This document shows, in pieces, positions 2,907 through 12,775 of a stretch of 32,000 nt of DNA. The translations under genes were made by a program, and so were the position numbers. This DNA comes from an uncultured Erysipelotrichaceae bacterium (lineage in GTDB: Bacteria; Bacillota_I; Bacilli_A; Erysipelotrichales; Erysipelotrichaceae), in assembly GCA_942492995.1 (NCBI GenBank), contig OW818653.1:1410001-1442000 (forward strand). The letters are read 5' to 3'. The notes under the pieces are model-generated. The model was not told where the DNA came from. It saw nothing but the letters and a program-made list of their open reading frames with translations, and did not search any database. The first letter of the stretch is position 1, and every line of letters begins with the position of its first letter.

Positions 2907-2933
2907 AAACAAAAACCATCCAATAGGATGGTT
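2907..2933 (-). terminator. Weak rho-independent terminator at the end of the glutamate mutase/methylaspartase operon
   Basis: Inverted repeat AACCATCC (2914-2921) / GGATGGTT (2926-2933) with a 4-nt loop. On the minus strand it is followed by TTTGTTT. The stem overlaps the stop codon at 2932-2934. Confidence 0.4.
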
Positions 2934-3249
2934 AGAAATCAAATTCTAGATCAAGTAATGGCGCATGTTGTTGAGCACCATAGACATCGGTTTCACGAAT
3001 ATCACCACTGCACATTGGACGAATGATTGTTGCTTTAATCGCATGGGCAGGAATAAATTCAATAATATTTATTACATCTTCAACTTTTATTTGATACAAA
3101 CGTGCAATGAGTTCAGGGTTTATGCATTTGTGTTCACACATTAATCTAAATGTTTCATCATCCTTTAGGATAATATCGAAGGTAATTTCATAAGGTCCTG
3201 AATTCTTAGAACGTATGACTTTCGCCATATCAATTAGTTTACGTTTCAT
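2932..3249 (-). CDS. DUF4387 domain protein (AtuA C-terminal-like small subunit)
   Basis: The ORF-track entry runs 2932-3270. I prefer the ATG at 3249 (MKRKLIDMAKVIRSKNSGPYEITFDIILKD...) because GAGG sits 5 nt upstream, immediately after the TGA of the preceding gene. The VIRSKN(S/A)GP(Y/F)E.T.D motif is what I recognise from DUF4387. Confidence 0.7.
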   Translation of the reverse strand: MKRKLIDMAKVIRSKNSGPYEITFDIILKDDETFRLMCEHKCINPELIARLYQIKVEDVINIIEFIPAHAIKATIIRPMCSGDIRETDVYGAQQHAPLLDLEFDF

Positions 3250-3256
3250 TGGTGCC

Positions 3257-4609
3257 TCACAATTGTACAATCGTACGTTTAAACATACCGACAGGATCTG
3301 TCACTTCAATAAGATGATATAGGCTAAAATTATACACAGCTCCGACTTTGAAATCGGATGGTGAGTAAGGGAATGCTAGATTACCCGCTGTCGCAATACG
3401 TCCTTCATATCCATAATGTAACATCGTACTTCGCGCAAAACTACAGATGGTATTTGCGACTTCCTGAGTACTCGCTACCGCATCGATTACGATGCAGAGT
3501 TCATGTGAATGTATTTCTTTGATTGGTTCAAGTTCACCCATGACACCATTCTTACCATATACCTTAAAGTTTAAATGATAATCTTTTAAATCTTTGAAGT
3601 TATCTTTTACTCTTAATTCAACACCTTGAATTATTGAATCGATTTCTCGAATGAAGATTGGATCTCGTACTCCGGCAATACTAACGGTTCTAAACCCAAC
3701 ACATTTAGCTGCCTCAAGTTTAATCGTATAAGGATTGGATGGAATATATACACTACCTTTAACCTCAACTTGTTCATCGTTTAATTGAGTAAAAGTTGTA
3801 TTGTGTAGATCAATGGTTCCACCAGGACCTGGTAGAATATAAGGATTTGTTTTTTCGTAGAGTGTATGTGCACTAACACTTAATGTCGTACATTTACGGA
3901 TTGGATTAAGTGTTTGCAAGATAAATGAATCCTCTGTAATCGTTCCAAACATACAATCACTTCCACTACCTGGACTTGACGCAATTGCGGCACATTCCAA
4001 TATCTTTCCACAATGGAGTGCTAAACCTGGATCAAATCCTCTTAATATCGGAAGAGCTGCGAAAACGGTTGGGTCATAAGCACGACCCGCAATAATCACA
4101 TCTACATTTTCTTTAAGCGCTTCAATAAATGGTTCTACACCCATTTGACCTACAATATAAGTCGAGTCTTTAATATCATCTTTTGTACAAACTGGTGCTG
4201 GATGTAAAGGCTTTATCTTACCTTCATCAAATGCTTTATACAGTAATTCTTTGTCAATATCTGCTTCAATAATTGCCATTTTAAAATGTAGATTATTTTC
4301 TTTTGCGATTTCTTCCACAATCTTTACGGTCCAATCAAGATGTGGTTTTGCGCCACTACCTCCAGCTGTCCCAACAAGTACAGGAATATTGTGTTCAATA
4401 CCTGCTTGAATCATTATGCCTAAATCACGTTTAACGGCATAGTAATCGGTAAATGAAACGCCAGCTCCAAGATAATATGGTCCAGGATCTGTAGAACCAG
4501 CATCAACTGCGATACAATCTGGTTTAAGTTTCATCCCTGCTTCAAAACTAGACATCGGAAATCCATAACCAAGAATCGCAGTAGTGGATAGTATTTTTAC
4601 ACTTTTCAT
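3257..4609 (-). CDS. DUF1446 (AtuA-like, acyclic terpene utilisation family) protein
   Basis: 450 aa. N-terminal ...ILGYGF...PDCIAVDAGSTDPGPYYLGAG... is typical of DUF1446. The start ATG overlaps the methylaspartate ammonia-lyase stop by 4 nt (4606-4609). Confidence 0.8.
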   Translation of the reverse strand: MKSVKILSTTAILGYGFPMSSFEAGMKLKPDCIAVDAGSTDPGPYYLGAGVSFTDYYAVKRDLGIMIQAGIEHNIPVLVGTAGGSGAKPHLDWTVKIVEEIAKENNLHFKMAIIEADIDKELLYKAFDEGKIKPLHPAPVCTKDDIKDSTYIVGQMGVEPFIEALKENVDVIIAGRAYDPTVFAALPILRGFDPGLALHCGKILECAAIASSPGSGSDCMFGTITEDSFILQTLNPIRKCTTLSVSAHTLYEKTNPYILPGPGGTIDLHNTTFTQLNDEQVEVKGSVYIPSNPYTIKLEAAKCVGFRTVSIAGVRDPIFIREIDSIIQGVELRVKDNFKDLKDYHLNFKVYGKNGVMGELEPIKEIHSHELCIVIDAVASTQEVANTICSFARSTMLHYGYEGRIATAGNLAFPYSPSDFKVGAVYNFSLYHLIEVTDPVGMFKRTIVQL

Positions 4610-5856
4610 ACGTTTGCCTTTCGTGCAGTATCGAGTGCGATAATTCGTTGCATTTCATTGTATACAATCATGAATCCTTCATCGACGCCCATTCCAGGTT
4701 TCGCAAGAATTTGACATGGTTGCGTTGCCATCGCTAAATGTACACATGTTTTAGCACTTAAATCAGTCTCGTTACATGTACCACCTTGGTATGCCCCAAT
4801 TCCTTTTTCCTTACAATAAAGTACAGCTTCAACGGTATTCTGTATACCACCTAAATCAGGTGTTTTAATCTGTACCATATGACCAGCTTTCATATCCGCA
4901 AACTCCATAATATCTTCAAGCGTATTACACCATTCATCCGCAACTATCTCAACATCAATCTTTCTTTGATCGAGTTTTTCAGTGATTATTTTAAGGCCTA
5001 ACATCGTCTTTTCACGATTATCGAAATCAACTGGACCTTCAATTCTTAAATGATATGGTCCGCTTGCGACACGTAATGTTTCAAGATAATCGACCATCGC
5101 ATCATAATCTTCTTTAAAGATAATGCCTAATGTCCCATACACATCGATATGAAATACCGGATTATAGTCTTCTGAATTTTTATGTTCATCAATACGTTGT
5201 CTTAACCATTTAACATACTCAAGTAACTTCTCACCTTGATAACCAAGTTTACTTTCAACATGATTAATCAAACCATGCGGTAAAACAGCACTTCCTTTAA
5301 GTATCATTTTATCTACATTGTCATAGCGATTATCGCCACTTTGACTGAAAATAGGGATTAACTCATGACTTACTTCAGTATGATATTCTTCCGCAATGAT
5401 ATTTGCCATTTGGGTATGTTTCGATTTCGCAATCGCATCGAGTAATGCTTGAGTAATTCCATAACGTAGTGCCGTATGAATTCGTTTACCATCAAGTTCT
5501 AAATGATCAAATTCATGTGCCATTGATTTAAACGTAGTCATTTCACGATTTAATAAAAGTGGTTTAATTCTCTCTTGAACGATTTGTTTGAACTCTTCTG
5601 CTATAAACAATGGATCTCTTCCACCACAACCACTGTATTGAACAGCACAACAATCGCCCATTCCAACTTGTCCATCTTCAAGGATTAACATAATTGTTAA
5701 TGATTCGCCTGCTTGACGGATACGGTTAAAACCATCAGTTACAGGTTCTCCTATATAGAAGTTACCATCTGATTTAGCACCTTTTTTAATTGCTTTTTGG
5801 TCATCAAAAAAGAATCCTGTTCTTCCACAACTACTTACGACATCAATTATTTTCAT
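4606..5856 (-). CDS. mal: 3-methylaspartate ammonia-lyase (methylaspartase, enolase superfamily)
   Basis: 416 aa. [27 protein letters not shown]..., and [12 protein letters not shown] containing the catalytic-Lys motif known from the Clostridium tetanomorphum enzyme. 4-nt overlap with the end of glmE. Confidence 0.93.
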
Positions 5857-7310
5857 ATGTTCCCCTTATTAGGACGACCAACGAGTCTTCCTTTACTAAC
5901 TGCATAGATATCATCAATAACCATTTGGAAACTGACTTGTCTACGTTCAACTTCTGCACGTTCTTGTAGTTTCTTGCGATGGAGATCTTTCAATGATTCA
6001 TCAAATGGTAAATTACCAAATTCATAGATTCTTACTGCACCATGATTGTCTCTAGCCGGTAACATCTTTCCTGCATTACATACAGCTGGGGCGAATGGTA
6101 CATCAATTAGTCCTGCTTCAAATGCACGAACAGCAGATAAACCAAAGTTATTTTCACCTAATTTAAGGACTGCTTCTAAAATGCTCTTTGTTTCACGCGT
6201 GATAATGTTCATTTCATCGACGATTTCAGTTGTCTCAAACGCAACTTGATCCTTTAACATCGATGTTAATTGTTTAGTTGTTTTTAATCCATTTGCGTTC
6301 GCTTCGGCAGTTGGGACGCCAAATGCTTCATGTGGAGATTTTACGATTACTTTGGTTGCGCCAGATAAAACGGCTGTCGCAGCTCCCCAACTTATAACCG
6401 CATACGCTTTAGCTTCATCTTGTGGGAAACCACCCATCCATTGATGAAATACGGTAGATACTTTTACATCTTCATACCCAAAACGTTTTAGATATTCTTT
6501 TGTGAGTAAATCAAGTGTACGAATTGCGGCGATATCTTGGGTTTGATTGCCACATTGTCCATACCCTACGGTAATACATTTACACCCTTGTTCAGCGGCT
6601 AATAGACTTTCAAGAATCGCAACACTGTGTGAGATACATGCAGGTACAAGTGTTCCCGTCAATGGACCAAACGGTTCGCGATTAATGGTTACTCCGCGTT
6701 CTTCATAATATCCAATTAAACGATCGACATATTGCCAATCTGTTATTGTTTTCTCTAAAGAATAATTCTTTCCATAAGGAATGTTATAGGAGATTCCACC
6801 CCCTTCATACGATGTGAATCCACCTGCTAAAGTGATTTCTGCTAATAGACGAGCATCTGGAGTTCCATGTCTTACTTGTAGCGGTACATTCAAAGATGAC
6901 ACGATATTGCGACAAACATGAACCCCATGGTTAACTGCAGGAAACCCATTAAGCAATGATTTACCTGTTCTAACACTTTCATCAATACCGGTTTGTGCTT
7001 CAGTATATCGATTGTGTCGTGTATAACTATCGATGGTTGTTGGTAAAAGATCTGCTCCACCTTCATCTTGTAAGAACTTTAATAATTTTATGTGTTCATT
7101 TGGTAATGCGACACCAGCTCTTGGTTGAATCAATGTTTCTTTGTTTAGGATGGCTTGCGCTAAACGATGACTAAATCGTTTCTCATCACTAATTGATTTT
7201 TGATAAGTTATCGCTTCTTCAATATCAACATCTTTTCCTGTACTCCATTGTTTAAGTACTTCTTCTCTTTGTTTAAGAAATTCATCTAACGGAATTTTTT
7301 TATTATACAT
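5853..7310 (-). CDS. glmE: Glutamate mutase (methylaspartate mutase) epsilon/E subunit
   Basis: 485 aa, a TIM-barrel mutase E-chain-like sequence (…[10 protein letters not shown]…[15 protein letters not shown]…). It occupies the canonical position after glmL and before mal. 8-nt overlap with the end of glmL. Confidence 0.92.
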
Positions 7311-8661
7311 GATGAATACGCTCCATATTTCTCTTTAAGATTCGTAATACTGTGTCGGGATATTTGTTCGCTAATAAACCTAAACAGCTAATAATATAAC
7401 TTTTATCTAAGTAGAATTCACATTGATTAGGCAATAATATCTCTTTATGATTAGGTTGTGATAATGCATTATGTAGGATTGAATACGCATCTTCCGCATA
7501 GATTATCGGTCCACCAATCCCGATAAGTATTTTCACATCGCGACAATCCTTCCCCGTTTGATAATAACTGACACCCATTGGTGTATAACTGGTTTCAAGT
7601 CGTCCTACATGTCTTTCACATGCGATTTCTGTACACCAACTCGCAAGTAGTTTGTCGTATTTTGGATTTGGTACACAATGAACATTATGTTTAATTTCGT
7701 TTAGATATGTTTCTAATTCTGGATCATTGATTTTATCTTTCATTAATTCATATACATTCATTGAACTAAAACGTAACCCTAAATCACCTTCTACACTTCG
7801 TTTCTCTAATGGTTCTTGTAGTCCTTTATATCCAAACTCTTCATTTATAACCAATCGTTGATTCATACTATACACATCTGTTGTGGCACCACCGATATCA
7901 ATGGCCATTAAATCGCCTAGTCCACTCTCAGTTAATGTACCTTTGGATAAGAGCTTTAGAGCTTCCATAACACTTGATGGGGTAGGTAGTACAATATCAT
8001 CCACAAGTTCACTTAAACGTGATAACCCACGTGCTTTTATGATTGATTTTAGAAATAACTCACGTATCTTCTCTTTACACTCGTCTACTTCTAATACACC
8101 ATAGGTAGGCATTACATTTGCGCAAAGTATGCATTCAAATCCATTTTGTTCAAGTAATGTCTTGATCTCGTCTTGACATGATTTATTGCCTGCATAGATG
8201 ATTGGAAAGCGTGATTTTAGTTTAATTAACTGATTCGCATTAGTTCGAACACTGGTTTGGTTACCACCATCTGTTCCACCACTAAGTAATAAAATATCAC
8301 AATTCGAAGATTCTATGTGTTCCAGTTCAGATTGATTTAATTCAAACGAATACGATTGAATAACTTTAGCCCCAGCACTATAACACGCTAGACGAGCTGC
8401 TTTAAGGGTTAAATCCGGAACTAATCCAATCGCAATCATACGCAATCCACCTTTAGCAGAACTACACACTAATGTTTCATGAATTGTAATATGATCTAAA
8501 ACATCTTTCATTTTAGATTTTATCTTCTCTATCCCAATCGAAATATCTGTACTTGACGTTGTAAAATCACTCGCATGTGCAAGTATTTTCTCTTGATCTG
8601 TATCAACGATACAACCCTTTGTATAGGTTGATCCAACATCAAATAAACAGTAATTAGGCAT
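7303..8661 (-). CDS. glmL: Glutamate mutase accessory/reactivating protein GlmL (MutL), ASKHA-fold
   Basis: 452 aa. N-terminal [12 protein letters not shown] phosphate-1-like motif and a later DIGGATTDV motif. Located between glmS and glmE as in clostridial operons. Confidence 0.88.
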
Positions 8662-9079
8662 AGAACCCTTGCGCTAATAAATCATTCTTCAAATCTTCAA
8701 TGCCTTGGTTAATATCTGCACCAGGTGGATAAACACGATTAAAACCCATGCCCTTAAATAAATGTTCAACCTCAGTAAAATCAGATTTACCTACGACAAG
8801 GTTTCCACCAATATAGAGCAATATTTTATCCAATCCAGCTTCTTTACACATATCCCCCATACCGCGACAATCCAATTCACCATGTCCATAAAGACTTGAG
8901 ACAATGATAGCCTTTGCGTTAGTCTCAACCGCCGCATCAATAAACTCTTTTTGCGAAACCATAACTCCAAGGTTAATCACATTAAACCCAGCTTGATCAA
9001 ACGCATACGCAATAATACGATTCCCTACCGCATGAACATCTGCCCCAATTACACCAATTACGATATTAATTTTTTCCAC
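8654..9079 (-). CDS. glmS: Glutamate mutase sigma/S subunit (B12-binding)
   Basis: 141 aa. [17 protein letters not shown] carries the DxHxxG cobalamin-binding motif. The size is typical of GlmS/MutS. Confidence 0.93.
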
Positions 9080-9093
9080 TTCAAATGCGCTCC

Positions 9094-10014
9094 TTAATCC
9101 GCAAAATGATTTATTTTATGGATATCCTGAATGGTTTCTCCACTCACAATTCCAACTAATTCAAACGTACTCTTCTGAGGATCATAGACATATTCTTTGA
9201 GTAGTCTAAAGTGTTTAATTTGCCCTGTATGATTTACATGCGTTCGAGGTCCTGTACAATATTGATCAATGATTTCACCTATTTTGATGTGGGTTGAATC
9301 ATGATAACTTATTGTTAGATCCTGCTTAATATATGCCTTAACTTTCTTTTCTAATACCGATATTGAAACCTTAGGTTTCTTATTGAAGGATAATATGAAT
9401 CCATGTTTAACATCCCCATGACCATCACACACAATCCCGTAATCACTTTCTAATACATGAACCAATAAATCTTCTGCACTATGTGCCATTCTTCGATAAT
9501 TGATTGATTTATAAACCGTTGTTTTAATATCTTCTGGAACAGGTCCAAACAAATTCGGACGCGATACAATAACCTCTTCTCCTATTCCAATTAGCAAATC
9601 CGCATTTACTTTCAAGTATGGAAATAGATCATCAAAATGTTCAATAATGACTCTTTTCTTATTTAATACTGCAAGATTTACAGCTTCTACCAATAAATAC
9701 ATCTGCGTAAACGCTGTTTCAAAGCGTATATCAATATGGTAGGTATGTGATTTAAAATTCAATTGTCCATAATCACGCATAAGAGGTGAAGGACGACTGT
9801 TAATTCCATCATCATCATTGGTTAACTCTAATCCTGGAAACATACCTTTTATGAAAAGTGATTTTCCACTACCCGCATCCCCGATTAATCCAATTATCTT
9901 ATCGTTGGGTAATAGGTATTTCTGACTCACTTGATTCCCAAGATTTTGCATACGAACACTTCCTCTTGGGGCAAAGTATGTCGCATATCTAAATTGTTCG
10001 ATGCTTAAAGTCAT
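9094..10014 (-). CDS. Uncharacterised P-loop protein with a C-terminal AlaRS/ThrRS second-additional-domain-like segment
   Basis: 306 aa, first gene of the operon, with an AGGAG RBS at 10021-10025. Walker A GDAGSGKS at aa 45-52, and a possible Walker [10 protein letters not shown]. The C-terminal [20 protein letters not shown] resembles the C-x-x-x-H...TG-x-I-x-x-F motif of the tRNA_SAD domain, preceded by HGDVKH. Confidence 0.6.
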
Positions 10015-10030
10015 GTTTATCTCCTAATAA

Positions 10031-10062
10031 ACAAAAATGATGCGAGAAAAATCGCATCATTT
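10031..10062 (-). terminator. Strong intrinsic terminator/attenuator hairpin immediately upstream of the glutamate mutase operon RBS
   Basis: The minus strand reads AAATGATGCGA-TTTTTC-TCGCATCATTT followed by TTGTTTATT (11-bp stem at 10035-10045 / 10052-10062). It is about 125 nt downstream of the malic enzyme stop and about 9 nt upstream of the AGGAG of the 9094-10014 gene. Confidence 0.6.
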
Positions 10063-10185: not shown

Positions 10186-11362
10186 TTATGATTTTCGAAC
10201 ACATCCTGATGCGATTGCGACATCTTTTACAGCTTGACTAACGACATCCTTAACACGTTTATCAAATACACTTGGAATAATGTAATCTGGACTAAGTTCT
10301 TCTATTTGGATAAGACTTGATAGACCATATGCGGCAGCTTTTTTCATCTCTTCTGTGATTTGCGTTGCCTTTGCGTCCAGTGCGCCTCTAAACAAACCAG
10401 GGAATGCGAGCACATTATTGACTTGATTTGGATAATCACTTCGTCCTGTCGCAATGATATACGCTCCAGCTTCTTTCGCATCTTCATAACTTATTTCAGG
10501 TTCTGGATTCGCTAATGCGAATACAATGGAAAGTTTATTCATACTTTGAATCATCGCTTTACTAACAAGTTTAGGAGCAGATACACCAATAAACACATCC
10601 GCATTTAACATCGCTTCTTGAAGTGTAACATTAAGTTGATTTGGATTTGTAAATTCACTGAGTTCTTGAACTAAGAAATCGGTGTGTTCTTCTTTTCGAA
10701 TAATTCCTTCTTTTCTAAATCCTAAGATATTTACAACACCTAAATCTCTTAACATAAACATGATTGAACTACCGGCTGCGCCAGCACCACTTACCACAAC
10801 TTTTAATTCTTTGAGTTCTTTCTTAATTAATTTTAATGCGTTAATTAGTCCAGCCGCTACGACAATCGCTGTTCCGTGTTGATCGTCATGGAAAACTGGA
10901 ATACTTAAAGTACGTTTAAGTTCTCTTTCAATTTGTACACATCTAGGCGCAGAAATATCTTCTAGGTTGATCCCTCCAAAACTTGGAGCTAATGCCTTAC
11001 AGATGCGAATGATTTCATCTGGGTCTTTTGTGTCTAATGCGATTGGGACTGCGTCAATATCTGCGAACGATTTGAATAATGCACATTTACCTTCCATAAC
11101 AGGTAAGCTTGCATGAGGTCCTATATCACCTAAACCTAGCACAGCAGTTCCGTCAGTAATAACCGCAACGGTATTCCCTTTCCAGGTATAGTCATAGACG
11201 GATTCTGGATTACGATGGATTTCGCGACATGGTTCCGCAACACCTGGTGTATAGGCTAAGCTTAGTTCTTCTTTATTGGTAATTGGCGCATTTAATTCAA
11301 TACGTAATTTACCCTCGCCATGCTTTATGTGCGATGAGTGATTTTTGATAAATATCTGACAT
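10186..11362 (-). pseudogene. NAD(P)-dependent malic enzyme (short MaeA/YtsJ type) interrupted by a 1-nt frameshift near codon 14
   Basis: The ORF track reports only 10186-11142, starting at an internal GTG. The same frame is open up to 11376 and encodes ...HGEGKLRIELNAPITNKEELSLAYTPGVAEPCREIHRNPESVYDYTWKGNTVAVITDGTAVLGLGDIG, the conserved malic enzyme N-terminus, but has no ATG/GTG/TTG. An ATG at 11362, 1 nt after the upstream stop, encodes MSDIYQKSLIAHKAWRG* in the adjacent frame, with its stop at 11309-11311. Removing one nt around 11323-11326 gives MSDIYQKSLIAHKHGEGKL..., a normal malic enzyme start. Confidence 0.8.
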
Positions 11363-11363
11363 G

Positions 11364-11921
11364 TTAATCCAACTCTCTATATTTCGCTTGTTCAATTTCG
11401 TATAAGTTATTTCCATAGGCATCAATCACGACAATTGCGGGAAAATCTTTAACCCAAAAACGGTGAATTGCCTCAGGACCTAAGTCTTCATAACATAGGA
11501 TTTCACTTCCCATAATACTTTTCGAGATCATTGCGCCAAGTCCACCAATTGCCGCAAAGTAAACACATTGGTGCTTTTTCATCGCATTGATAACTTCAAC
11601 ACTTCGATTTCCTTTGCCTATCATTCCTTTTAAACCTTTTTCAATTAAGATTGGGGCATATTTATCCATACGATAACTTGATGTAGGTCCAGCTGAACCT
11701 ACCGCAACACCTGGTTTACTTGGAGCTGGTCCAACATAATAGATGACTTCTCCTTCTAGTTTGATAGGTAATTGTTGATGGTTTTTAATCGCATCAAATA
11801 ATCTTTGATGAGCCGCATCTCTTCCTGTAATCATCGTTCCTGATAATAAGACACTCTCACCAGCTTTTAGTGATAGAATCGTCTCATTATCTAAAGGTAA
11901 TTGTATTTTTCTTTCTTCCAT
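11364..11921 (-). CDS. Fe-S type (class I-like) fumarate hydratase/hydro-lyase, beta subunit; candidate mesaconase subunit
   Basis: 185 aa. ...LSGTMITGRDAAHQRL...YYVGPAPSKPG...GPTSSYRMD... is typical of the tartrate/fumarate-subfamily beta chain. Confidence 0.88.
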   Translation of the reverse strand: MEERKIQLPLDNETILSLKAGESVLLSGTMITGRDAAHQRLFDAIKNHQQLPIKLEGEVIYYVGPAPSKPGVAVGSAGPTSSYRMDKYAPILIEKGLKGMIGKGNRSVEVINAMKKHQCVYFAAIGGLGAMISKSIMGSEILCYEDLGPEAIHRFWVKDFPAIVVIDAYGNNLYEIEQAKYRELD

Positions 11922-11929
11922 TTCTTCTC

Positions 11930-12775
11930 CTAGAGTTCAATAGACGCATGTCGAGATGCATGACAGCTTATATTGATAGCGACTGGTATTGAGGCAATAT
12001 GTGTAGGATAGACTTCGATATTAATCGCAAATGCGGTAGTTAAACCACCAAGTCCCGCAGGTCCTATCCCTGTTTTATTTATTTTTGTGAGTAATTCTTC
12101 TTCTAGTGCTCGATAACGCGGGTCAGGATGTGGATGATCGGTTCCTCTTAACACTGCTTTTTTCGCAATTAAACTTGCGTATTCGAATGTTCCACCAATT
12201 CCAACTCCGACAATCATGGGTGGGCATGCATTCGGTCCAGCTTTTTCTACCGCTTCTACAATAAATTGTTTTACACCTTCAATCCCAACAGATGGCGCAA
12301 ACATTTTTAGTGTACTCATATTCTCACTTCCAAATCCTTTAGGCATGACTTCAATATGTATTTTATCCCCAGGCACAATCATTGTATGGATTACTGCAGG
12401 TGTATTATCTTTTGTATTAACTCGATCAAACAATGGATCTCTAACCACCGATTTGCGAAGATATCCTTCTTGGTATGCTTGTCTTACACCTTCATGAATC
12501 GCATCATTAAGGTATGTACCTTCAATATGTACATCTTGTCCAATATCGATAAAAACGACGGACATTCCAGTATCTTGGCAAATTGCAATACCTTCTTTTT
12601 TAGCGAGTGTATTATTTTCATAAATCTTTTCTAGGATTGATTTCCCTAACTGTGATTTCTCTTTATTCATCGCATCTTCTATTGTCTTGAAAACTGAATC
12701 GCCAATATCAAAATTAGCTTGTATAAATAAGTCTTTTACAGCTTGAGTGATTTCTGTTGATTGAATGGTGCGCAT
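11930..12775 (-). CDS. Fe-S type (class I-like) fumarate hydratase/hydro-lyase, alpha subunit; candidate mesaconase subunit
   Basis: 281 aa. ...IAICQDTGMSVVFIDIG... and ...CPPMIVGVGIGGTFE... are typical of the alpha chain. First gene of the fumarase/malic-enzyme operon. Confidence 0.88.
   Translation of the reverse strand: MRTIQSTEITQAVKDLFIQANFDIGDSVFKTIEDAMNKEKSQLGKSILEKIYENNTLAKKEGIAICQDTGMSVVFIDIGQDVHIEGTYLNDAIHEGVRQAYQEGYLRKSVVRDPLFDRVNTKDNTPAVIHTMIVPGDKIHIEVMPKGFGSENMSTLKMFAPSVGIEGVKQFIVEAVEKAGPNACPPMIVGVGIGGTFEYASLIAKKAVLRGTDHPHPDPRYRALEEELLTKINKTGIGPAGLGGLTTAFAINIEVYPTHIASIPVAINISCHASRHASIEL

Follow-up and report, generated by a model that had tools for sequence, protein, structure and literature searches.

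Two adjoining genes on the minus strand of a 32,000-nucleotide (nt) stretch of contig OW818653.1, from an uncultured Erysipelotrichaceae bacterium (the whole stretch is hereafter called the window), very probably encode CmlA and CmlB, the large and small subunits of a CmlAB-type citramalate lyase. Such an enzyme cleaves (S)-citramalate to pyruvate and acetate and is independent of coenzyme A (CoA) and of an acyl carrier protein. The assignment rests on orthology to a CmlAB of solved structure, on the predicted fold, on kept synteny, and on mutual exclusion with the genes of the canonical lyase CitDEF. Together with the neighbouring genes glmS-glmL-glmE-mal and a class I fumarase as presumed mesaconase, the pair would give the window, as judged from its sequence, every step that leads from glutamate to pyruvate, acetate and ammonia. 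The enzyme kind is already known, and we report an orthologue assignment, not a discovery; its practical value lies in annotation.

Sequence and fold of the gene pair

The two genes are open reading frames (ORFs) in different frames, separated by a stop codon and 7 nt. The ATG of cmlA shares the tetranucleotide ATGA with the TGA of mal, the gene for 3-methylaspartate ammonia-lyase (MAL; window positions 4606-4609, TCAT on the plus strand). The stop codon of cmlA lies at 3259..3257, where the coding strand reads TGAGGCACCAATG, and the ATG of cmlB follows at 3249, with a GAGG that overlaps the cmlA stop codon ahead of it. Both junctions had been described in these terms in the first-pass annotation, namely a DUF1446 gene starting inside the mal stop codon and a DUF4387 gene starting 7 nt after the DUF1446 stop with an embedded GAGG, and both were borne out when the coding strand was read. 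A mechanical ORF list places the cmlB start at a TTG at 3270, giving 112 amino acids (aa), but the true start is the ATG at 3249 (105 aa), since the product aligns over residues 1-105 to the 105-aa CmlB in the PDB.

From the ATGA overlap and the 7-nt spacer we infer that expression of cmlAB is tied to that of MAL by translational coupling. A terminator-like hairpin stands directly after the cmlB stop codon (AACCATCC-TATT-GGATGGTT, then TTTGTTT; tail given as TTTGTTTACA), and cmlAB thus closes the operon. No riboswitch or leader was found in an Rfam scan of the whole window. A chance pair of ORFs can be dismissed, because cmlAB is kept in 80 species-level genomes belonging to several phyla, with identities of 61-84%.

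In Pfam, the 450-aa protein matched PF07287 (AtuA; E 8e-19, 68.1 bits against a cut-off of 22.8), a partial match with its best stretch at profile positions 88-207, and the 105-aa protein matched PF14330 (DUF4387) along its full length (E 1e-38). NCBIfam holds no model for either subunit. When all chain sequences of the PDB were searched with phmmer, each protein had one strong match. The large subunit matched 9ERQ_A/9EVF (E 2.8e-168, residues 3-440 on 4-440), named 'Acyclic terpene utilization AtuA family protein | Citramalate lyase, subunit A (cmlA)', and the small subunit matched 9ERQ_B (E 2.3e-28, residues 1-105 on 1-105), named 'DUF4387 domain-containing protein | Citramalate lyase, subunit B (cmlB)'. 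By BLASTP, identity to the solved subunits was 254/437 (58%) for CmlA and 51/105 (49%) for CmlB. Entry 9EVF, released 2025-10-08, is titled 'Citramalate lyase - ADP - pyruvate complex' (ADP, adenosine diphosphate).

For the window CmlA, an AlphaFold2 model computed with an alignment of 30 sequences (predicted local distance difference test, pLDDT, 85.6; predicted template modelling score, pTM, 0.83), matched 9evf_A in Foldseek with E 2e-62, template modelling (TM) scores of 0.93/0.92 and a root-mean-square deviation of 2.5. By fold, no PDB chain other than 9EVF was found at E <= 1e-3, and a sequence-profile search of the PDB returned none. The predicted fold is thus so far represented among PDB structures only by citramalate lyase CmlA.

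The solved enzyme is that of Raoultella planticola, whose cmlAB, with one gene per subunit, was expressed in engineered E. coli (bioRxiv 10.64898/2026.01.16.699985). In this preprint, an E. coli acetyl-CoA auxotroph grew on mesaconate in dependence on citramalate lyase, and the route was confirmed by isotope labelling. Direct cleavage to pyruvate and acetate is described, and evolved strains up-regulated Acs, the acetate-activating enzyme. The catalytic activity that we ascribe to the window pair would be the one taken from the PDB entry titles and from the in vivo use of the Raoultella genes, rather than one read from the window protein itself.

A DUF1446 gene downstream of mal, often misannotated as methylaspartate ammonia-lyase, was noted in Enterobacteriaceae and Dictyoglomus by Kronen and Berg in 2015 (PMC4682846), and the link between DUF1446 and mal is thus already on record. 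The same study found the glm-mal-fumD cluster in E. coli O157:H7, with no expression under the tested conditions; extracts of this strain were without citramalate lyase activity, and the fate of citramalate was judged unclear. In E. coli O157:H7 Sakai, glmE (ECs_0762) is followed by mal (ECs_0761), ECs_0760 (456 aa) and ECs_0759 (105 aa). The proteins encoded by the last two genes share 92% and 84% identity with the Raoultella CmlA and CmlB, and 60% and 45% with the window CmlA and CmlB. We count it as support that CmlAB resolves the 2015 question of the citramalate-cleaving step in this cluster. RefSeq lists the Sakai orthologue of CmlA as '3-methylaspartate ammonia-lyase' and that of CmlB as 'acyl-CoA synthetase' (L083 46933-48617), and the wrong ammonia-lyase name is also found on many metagenome-derived CmlA homologues. 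A literature search for 'DUF4387' turned up no paper.

The first-pass annotation had put forward the split DUF1446 and DUF4387 pair as the missing citramalate-cleaving enzyme, and this proposal is supported by the names of 9ERQ and 9EVF, the identities to them, the preprint and the profiling presented below. It had also held that no activity was established for AtuA. This still stands, and no demonstrated activity of AtuA was found in the literature looked at, but it does not extend to the CmlAB branch, in view of the named structures and the preprint. On the same grounds, isomerisation and activation, which had been kept as equally open roles, are now much less likely. The suggestion to assay the proteins with and without adenosine triphosphate (ATP) was a good one, given the ADP found in one of the deposited complexes.

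cmlAB and citDEF in other genomes

A scan centred on cmlA, with one genome per GTDB species, found a relative in at least 542 genomes. The best 80, with 61-84% identity, were kept; they belong to Bacillota, Bacteroidota, Spirochaetota, Desulfobacterota, Elusimicrobiota, Sumerlaeota and Halanaerobiales. The loci were examined by tblastn with the window proteins, and the survey comprised 81 cmlA loci. At 149 of its 450 positions, the window CmlA has the residue common to at least 97% of these loci. The gene cmlB lay at most 300 nt downstream of cmlA in 77 of the 79 loci with room for it, and mal was directly upstream of cmlA in 55 of the 71 loci with at least 1.5 kb of upstream sequence and within 4 kb in four more. 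Among the 81 loci, glmE was present in 57, glmL in 54, glmS in 53, fumA in 33 and fumB in 31. Short gaps or overlaps were frequent at the mal-cmlA and cmlA-cmlB junctions (counted with heuristically picked start codons), and tight coupling is therefore typical. None of the 81 loci had citC, citD, citE, citF, citX or citG within 10 kb, as judged with E. coli queries.

A second scan was centred on mal, with the MAL of C. tetanomorphum as lead, thus avoiding a bias to cmlAB. It gave 80 metagenome loci, 65 of them with at least 2 kb downstream of mal. Genes like citE/citF without cmlA were found at 39 of these 65 loci, cmlAB without citEF at 3, neither at 23 and both at none. In total, the 146 informative loci (81 and 65) showed no co-occurrence of cmlAB and cit genes, and the two lyases therefore behave as non-homologous enzymes that replace each other at this step. 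Phylogenetic profiling of the DUF1446/DUF4387 pair against the canonical citramalate lyase in glm-mal clusters, as the first-pass annotation had suggested, thus revealed mutual exclusion.

Some clusters departed from these patterns. Neither lyase was found within 10 kb of glmS-glmL-glmE-mal in, e.g., seven human gut metagenome contigs (L138, L152, L155, L156, L158, L159 and L163) and in L107, L109 and L126, and the neighbours in L138 and L107 were unrelated genes (ABC exporters, a flavodoxin-like protein and a BKACE-family enzyme). The unrelated neighbours at the 23 lyase-less mal loci gave no hint of a third lyase type; here the lyase gene may lie elsewhere, or a different route may be used.

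Desulforamulus putei (L031 7069-16137) has cmlAB without glutamate mutase or mal. A tripartite ATP-independent periplasmic (TRAP) dicarboxylate transporter (DctPQM) precedes the pair, and a sigma-54 activator, class I fumarase alpha and beta, and phosphoenolpyruvate (PEP) carboxykinase follow it. This cluster looks like a stand-alone module for mesaconate or citramalate use, and three further loci (L036, L039 and L044) have a similar gene order. In the aerobic alkaliphile Halalkalibacter kiskunsagensis (L047 2614-8248), cmlAB adjoins a Tn3-family transposase and a resolvase, with no glm, mal or fumarase gene nearby, and may be a mobile or orphan copy.

Mode of cleavage and alternative explanations

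Canonical citramalate and citrate lyases depend on an acyl carrier protein with a phosphoribosyl-dephospho-CoA prosthetic group, which is kept as an acetyl thioester, and on three maturation enzymes. The CmlAB loci encode neither a carrier protein nor maturation enzymes, and the free acid must therefore be cleaved. We envisage a retro-aldol-type cleavage of the C2-C3 bond of the free acid. An invariant acid/base residue would deprotonate the hydroxyl group, and the acetate carbanion would be stabilised in the active site, not as a thioester but as an aci-anion, as in isocitrate lyase. The direct cleavage described in the preprint and the up-regulation of Acs indicate free acetate as the product. 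In 9EVF the active site is presumed to bind pyruvate and also to hold ADP, whose role could be catalytic, regulatory or structural.

Several points weigh against the assignment. The literature search found no primary enzymology paper on CmlAB, and its activity rests on PDB titles and one preprint in which the enzyme serves as a tool. In that work growth was obtained on mesaconate only, not on racemic citramalate (bioRxiv 10.64898/2026.01.16.699985). The ADP ligand in 9EVF means that a simple picture of direct cleavage may be incomplete. Among the 71 cmlA loci with enough upstream sequence, 12 were without mal in reach, and some of the mal-less contexts (Desulfoluna, Halalkalibacter) were uninformative. 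Finally, tblastn with the six E. coli K-12 proteins CitC, CitD, CitE, CitF, CitX and CitG found no homologue at E <= 0.01 in the window, whereas these queries did detect cit genes at the 39 mal-centred loci, but as regards this organism the absence of citDEF covers these 32 kb only.

A full-library search with CmlB gave 1007 cluster representatives at E <= 1e-3, most of them stand-alone proteins of 100-135 aa, and a minority in which DUF4387 forms the C-terminus of a protein of about 610-735 aa. Four such fused proteins consist of PF07287 and PF14330, and one more adds a family III CoA-transferase domain. The five fused forms are 36-51% identical to the window CmlA, and 62 positions of the window CmlA are invariant in an alignment that includes them. 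The invariant set contains D36-x-G-S-x-D-x-G-P44 (with D36, S39 and D41), G83-G-x-G86, R176, D179, K202, E205, C206, H248, E252, K297, E299, R393, H398 and N410. The CmlB motifs VIRSKNxGP and QQHxPL also occur in the fused forms. In the CoA-transferase fusion (P0353, 1096 aa), AtuA, DUF4387 and a family III CoA-transferase form a single chain, a hint that part of the family uses CoA esters as substrates, as has been suggested for AtuA. In another protein, P0254 (336 aa), DUF4387 is joined to an isochorismatase.

The alternative that survives best is nucleotide-dependent catalysis, which we consider possible but unlikely. Bound ATP would phosphorylate the C4 carboxylate of citramalate, and the resulting citramalyl phosphate would be cleaved to pyruvate and acetyl phosphate, with the phosphoryl group either returned to ADP or released as acetyl phosphate to acetate kinase; ADP/ATP would thus replace the acetyl thioester of CitDEF. 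Such a cycle would fit 9EVF, one of two structures deposited, in which the enzyme is in complex with ADP and pyruvate, and the invariant glycine-rich stretches D36-x-G-S-x-D-x-G-P44 and G83-G-x-G86, common to the fused AtuA forms, could bind phosphates. It would also meet the chemical difficulty of releasing a free acetate carbanion, which is the established reason for the thioester in the canonical enzyme. On the other hand, the preprint reports direct cleavage to pyruvate and acetate together with up-regulation of Acs (bioRxiv 10.64898/2026.01.16.699985), no kinase-like fold was detected (in Foldseek only 9EVF was significant, and the PDB profile search gave nothing), and the ADP may be regulatory or structural.

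It is considerably less probable that the window pair is a lyase of the same family with another substrate, such as (R)-citramalate, malate, citrate or 3-methylmalate, and that citramalate is removed by an enzyme encoded elsewhere. The identities of 58% and 49% to the characterised enzyme could leave room for a shifted substrate range, a point that also counts against our assignment; the family is broad, with its 1007 DUF4387 cluster representatives and its fusions to other enzyme domains, and the neighbouring genes include those for a malic enzyme and a promiscuous fumarase. Against another substrate stand the mal-cmlA-cmlB order, which is that of the characterised enterobacterial cluster, the 149 highly conserved CmlA positions, the strict mutual exclusion with citDEF in glm-mal clusters, and the lack of any other candidate lyase in the window.

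The remaining two explanations can be set aside. That the pair is an accessory or second form of methylaspartate ammonia-lyase, or an activating enzyme resembling acyl-CoA synthetases, derives from source annotations that name its homologues '3-methylaspartate ammonia-lyase' and the small subunit 'acyl-CoA synthetase', and is effectively refuted: there is no sequence or fold similarity to the MAL/enolase superfamily or to adenylate-forming enzymes, the MAL annotation was flagged as unexplained by Kronen and Berg (PMC4682846), and the solved structure is named citramalate lyase. A role of the AtuA type in acyclic terpene utilisation, to which the PF07287 match above cut-off and the tentative assignment of AtuA as an acetate-releasing lyase (PMC4847356) might point, is contradicted by gene context and has practically no probability left, as the 45 window ORFs include no atu genes (geranyl-CoA carboxylase, AtuE hydratase, acyl-CoA dehydrogenase), the genes are split, not fused, the Pfam match is partial (68 bits), and the linkage to mal, glm and fumAB is kept in anaerobes of many phyla.

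The pair should therefore be filed as CmlAB and not as AtuA, given that it shares the Pfam family with AtuA but has neither the fused architecture nor the atu context. The first-pass annotation had described AtuA as one polypeptide with both domains, consistent with the fused PF07287 and PF14330 proteins and with the 615-aa AtuA listed for Thauera (PMC4847356). Its analogy between citramalate cleavage and the acetate release discussed for AtuA is also sound, considering the common domains and invariant residues and the tentative role of AtuA.

The surrounding cluster and comparison with known systems

The 10-kb stretch from 12775 to 2932 contains, in this order, the genes for fumarase alpha, fumarase beta, malic enzyme, p306, glmS, glmL, glmE, mal, cmlA and cmlB (Table 1). 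The nearest relatives are metagenome-assembled Erysipelotrichaceae genomes with 81-84% identical CmlA, and OW818668.1, a closed 2.03-Mb chromosome, has the identical gene order. The gap between the malic enzyme gene and p306 is 171 nt long and contains a hairpin with a T-rich tail, for which no Rfam family was found. This hairpin (10062..10035) suggests two transcription units, one with fumAB and the malic enzyme gene and the other from p306 through cmlB.

Table 1. Window coordinates of the cmlAB genes, their neighbours and the two hairpins.
Feature	Coordinates	Strand	Basis
cmlA (450 aa, AtuA/DUF1446 family), large subunit of CmlAB-type citramalate lyase (very probable)	3257..4609	-	ORF, PF07287, PDB match, AlphaFold2/Foldseek
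cmlB (105 aa, DUF4387), small subunit of CmlAB-type citramalate lyase (very probable)	2932..3249	-	PF14330, PDB match, adjoins cmlA
Terminator-like hairpin	2933..2914	-	8-bp stem, 4 G-C pairs; overlaps cmlB stop codon
mal, 3-methylaspartate ammonia-lyase (416 aa)	4606..5856	-	MAAL_N E 6e-70, MAAL_C E 4e-116
glmE, glutamate mutase E (catalytic) subunit	5853..7310	-	Pfam Met_asp_mut_E E 2e-219
glmL/mutL, glutamate mutase reactivase/chaperone	7303..8661	-	MutL PF13941 E 1e-141; role per PMC4682846
glmS, glutamate mutase S (B12-binding) subunit	8654..9079	-	Pfam B12-binding; precedes glmL-glmE, as in 53 related loci
p306 (306 aa), first gene of glm-mal-cmlAB unit	9094..10014	-	predicted TsaE-like P-loop and AlaX-like domains
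Terminator-like hairpin, gap between malic enzyme gene and p306	10035..10062	-	11-bp stem, then TTGTTTATTA
NAD(P)-malic enzyme gene with 1-nt frameshift	10186..11362	-	sequence read, tblastn, NCBIfam malic enzyme
Class I (Fe-S) fumarate hydratase beta, presumed mesaconase beta	11364..11921	-	Pfam Fumerase_C; NCBIfam NF005310
Class I (Fe-S) fumarate hydratase alpha, presumed mesaconase alpha	11930..12775	-	Pfam Fumerase E 1e-115; NCBIfam NF004885

In the proposed route, the B12-dependent mutase GlmS/GlmE, for which GlmL serves as reactivase, would form 3-methylaspartate from glutamate, and MAL, which is 59% identical to the beta-methylaspartase 1KCZ of C. tetanomorphum (E 6e-170), would turn 3-methylaspartate into mesaconate and ammonia. 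The two-subunit Fe-S class I fumarase, presumed to be a mesaconase by analogy with the C. tetanomorphum enzyme and with FumD (PMC4682846), would hydrate mesaconate to (S)-citramalate, which CmlAB would split into pyruvate and acetate.

The malic enzyme was rejected as a downstream step, since oxidative decarboxylation is not open to (S)-citramalate, a tertiary alcohol. In addition, the malic enzyme gene carries a frameshift. It has one extra base after codon 17 (GGGT, near 11311-11314), the frame that opens with the ATG stops at once, and the remainder continues in a different frame. In tblastn, the intact 392-aa orthologue from OW818668.1 (75% identical) splits into two frames on the window gene. 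The frameshift marks either a pseudogene or a sequencing or assembly error.

The protein p306 gave weak TsaE matches, below cut-off, in Pfam and NCBIfam. Its AlphaFold2 model, compared by Foldseek, is predicted to have an N-terminal TsaE/YjeE-like P-loop ATPase domain and a C-terminal domain resembling AlaX and the editing domain of alanyl-tRNA synthetase (AlaRS). H199, H242, C253 and H259 are invariant, and H204 nearly so, recalling the zinc motif of AlaX/AlaRS editing domains. Database names for such proteins say little; they are TsaE, 'lantibiotic ABC transporter' and 'alanine-tRNA synthetase second additional domain'. The gene occurs in 52 of the 81 cmlA loci, usually right after cmlB, and also in many citEF-type clusters, and thus tracks glm/mal and not the lyase type. 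A role as a CmlAB-specific partner was rejected on the grounds that p306 is found in citEF-type clusters and is absent from the cmlAB-fumarase loci without glutamate mutase. A wider scheme, speculative and rather improbable in our judgement, would have CmlAB use a tightly bound adenine nucleotide in an acyl-phosphate cycle that replaces the thioester cycle of CitDEF, would explain AtuA by the same chemistry as an acetate-releasing lyase of terpene catabolism, and would make p306 an accessory pathway factor, e.g. in glutamate mutase or B12 handling.

Among the 80 best relatives examined, CmlAB is spread over Bacillota, Bacteroidota (with oral and gut taxa among them), Spirochaetota, Desulfobacterota, Elusimicrobiota and Sumerlaeota, and it occurs also in pathogenic enterobacteria. 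Public records still call its subunits 'AtuA family', 'DUF1446', 'DUF4387', '3-methylaspartate ammonia-lyase' or 'acyl-CoA synthetase', and the function is recorded in neither Pfam nor NCBIfam; citramalate cleavage will therefore be overlooked when the metabolism of gut and oral communities is reconstructed. Being encoded by two genes and working without a prosthetic group, the lyase already serves in pathway engineering (bioRxiv 10.64898/2026.01.16.699985).

Among known systems, the AtuA of Pseudomonas and Thauera shares the families PF07287 and PF14330 with CmlAB, and its tentative release of acetate from 3-hydroxy-3-alkyl-glutaryl-CoA is formally the same bond cleavage (PMC4847356). In contrast to the window pair, AtuA has both domains in a single chain of about 610-620 aa. 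It is proposed to act on a CoA ester, and it belongs to aerobic or denitrifying terpene catabolism. Isocitrate lyase and 2-methylisocitrate lyase cleave a hydroxy-polycarboxylic free acid and stabilise the alpha-carbanion of the released acid without a thioester. They provide a mechanistic analogy only, with no detected sequence or fold relation to CmlAB, and E. coli extracts containing them were without citramalate lyase activity (PMC4682846). CitDEF with CitC, CitX and CitG, the Clostridium tetanomorphum type, has the same net reaction, the same place in the pathway and an equivalent position in glm-mal clusters, but it is not homologous to CmlAB, in whose loci its carrier protein and maturation enzymes are not encoded.

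In E. coli O157:H7 Sakai, the orthologous pair ECs_0760/ECs_0759 likewise directly follows mal in a glm-mal-fumarase cluster. The window host differs from Raoultella planticola in being a low-G+C Erysipelotrichaceae-like anaerobe, not an enterobacterium. Its presumed mesaconase is a split two-subunit class I fumarase, whereas the enterobacterial one is the single-chain FumD, and where the window has p306 and malic enzyme, the enterobacterial cluster has gltP, cobA and a LysR regulator. Common to the window pair and the Raoultella CmlAB (9ERQ, 9EVF) are the AtuA-family subunit of about 450 aa with its predicted fold, the 105-aa DUF4387 subunit, and the order mal-cmlA-cmlB.

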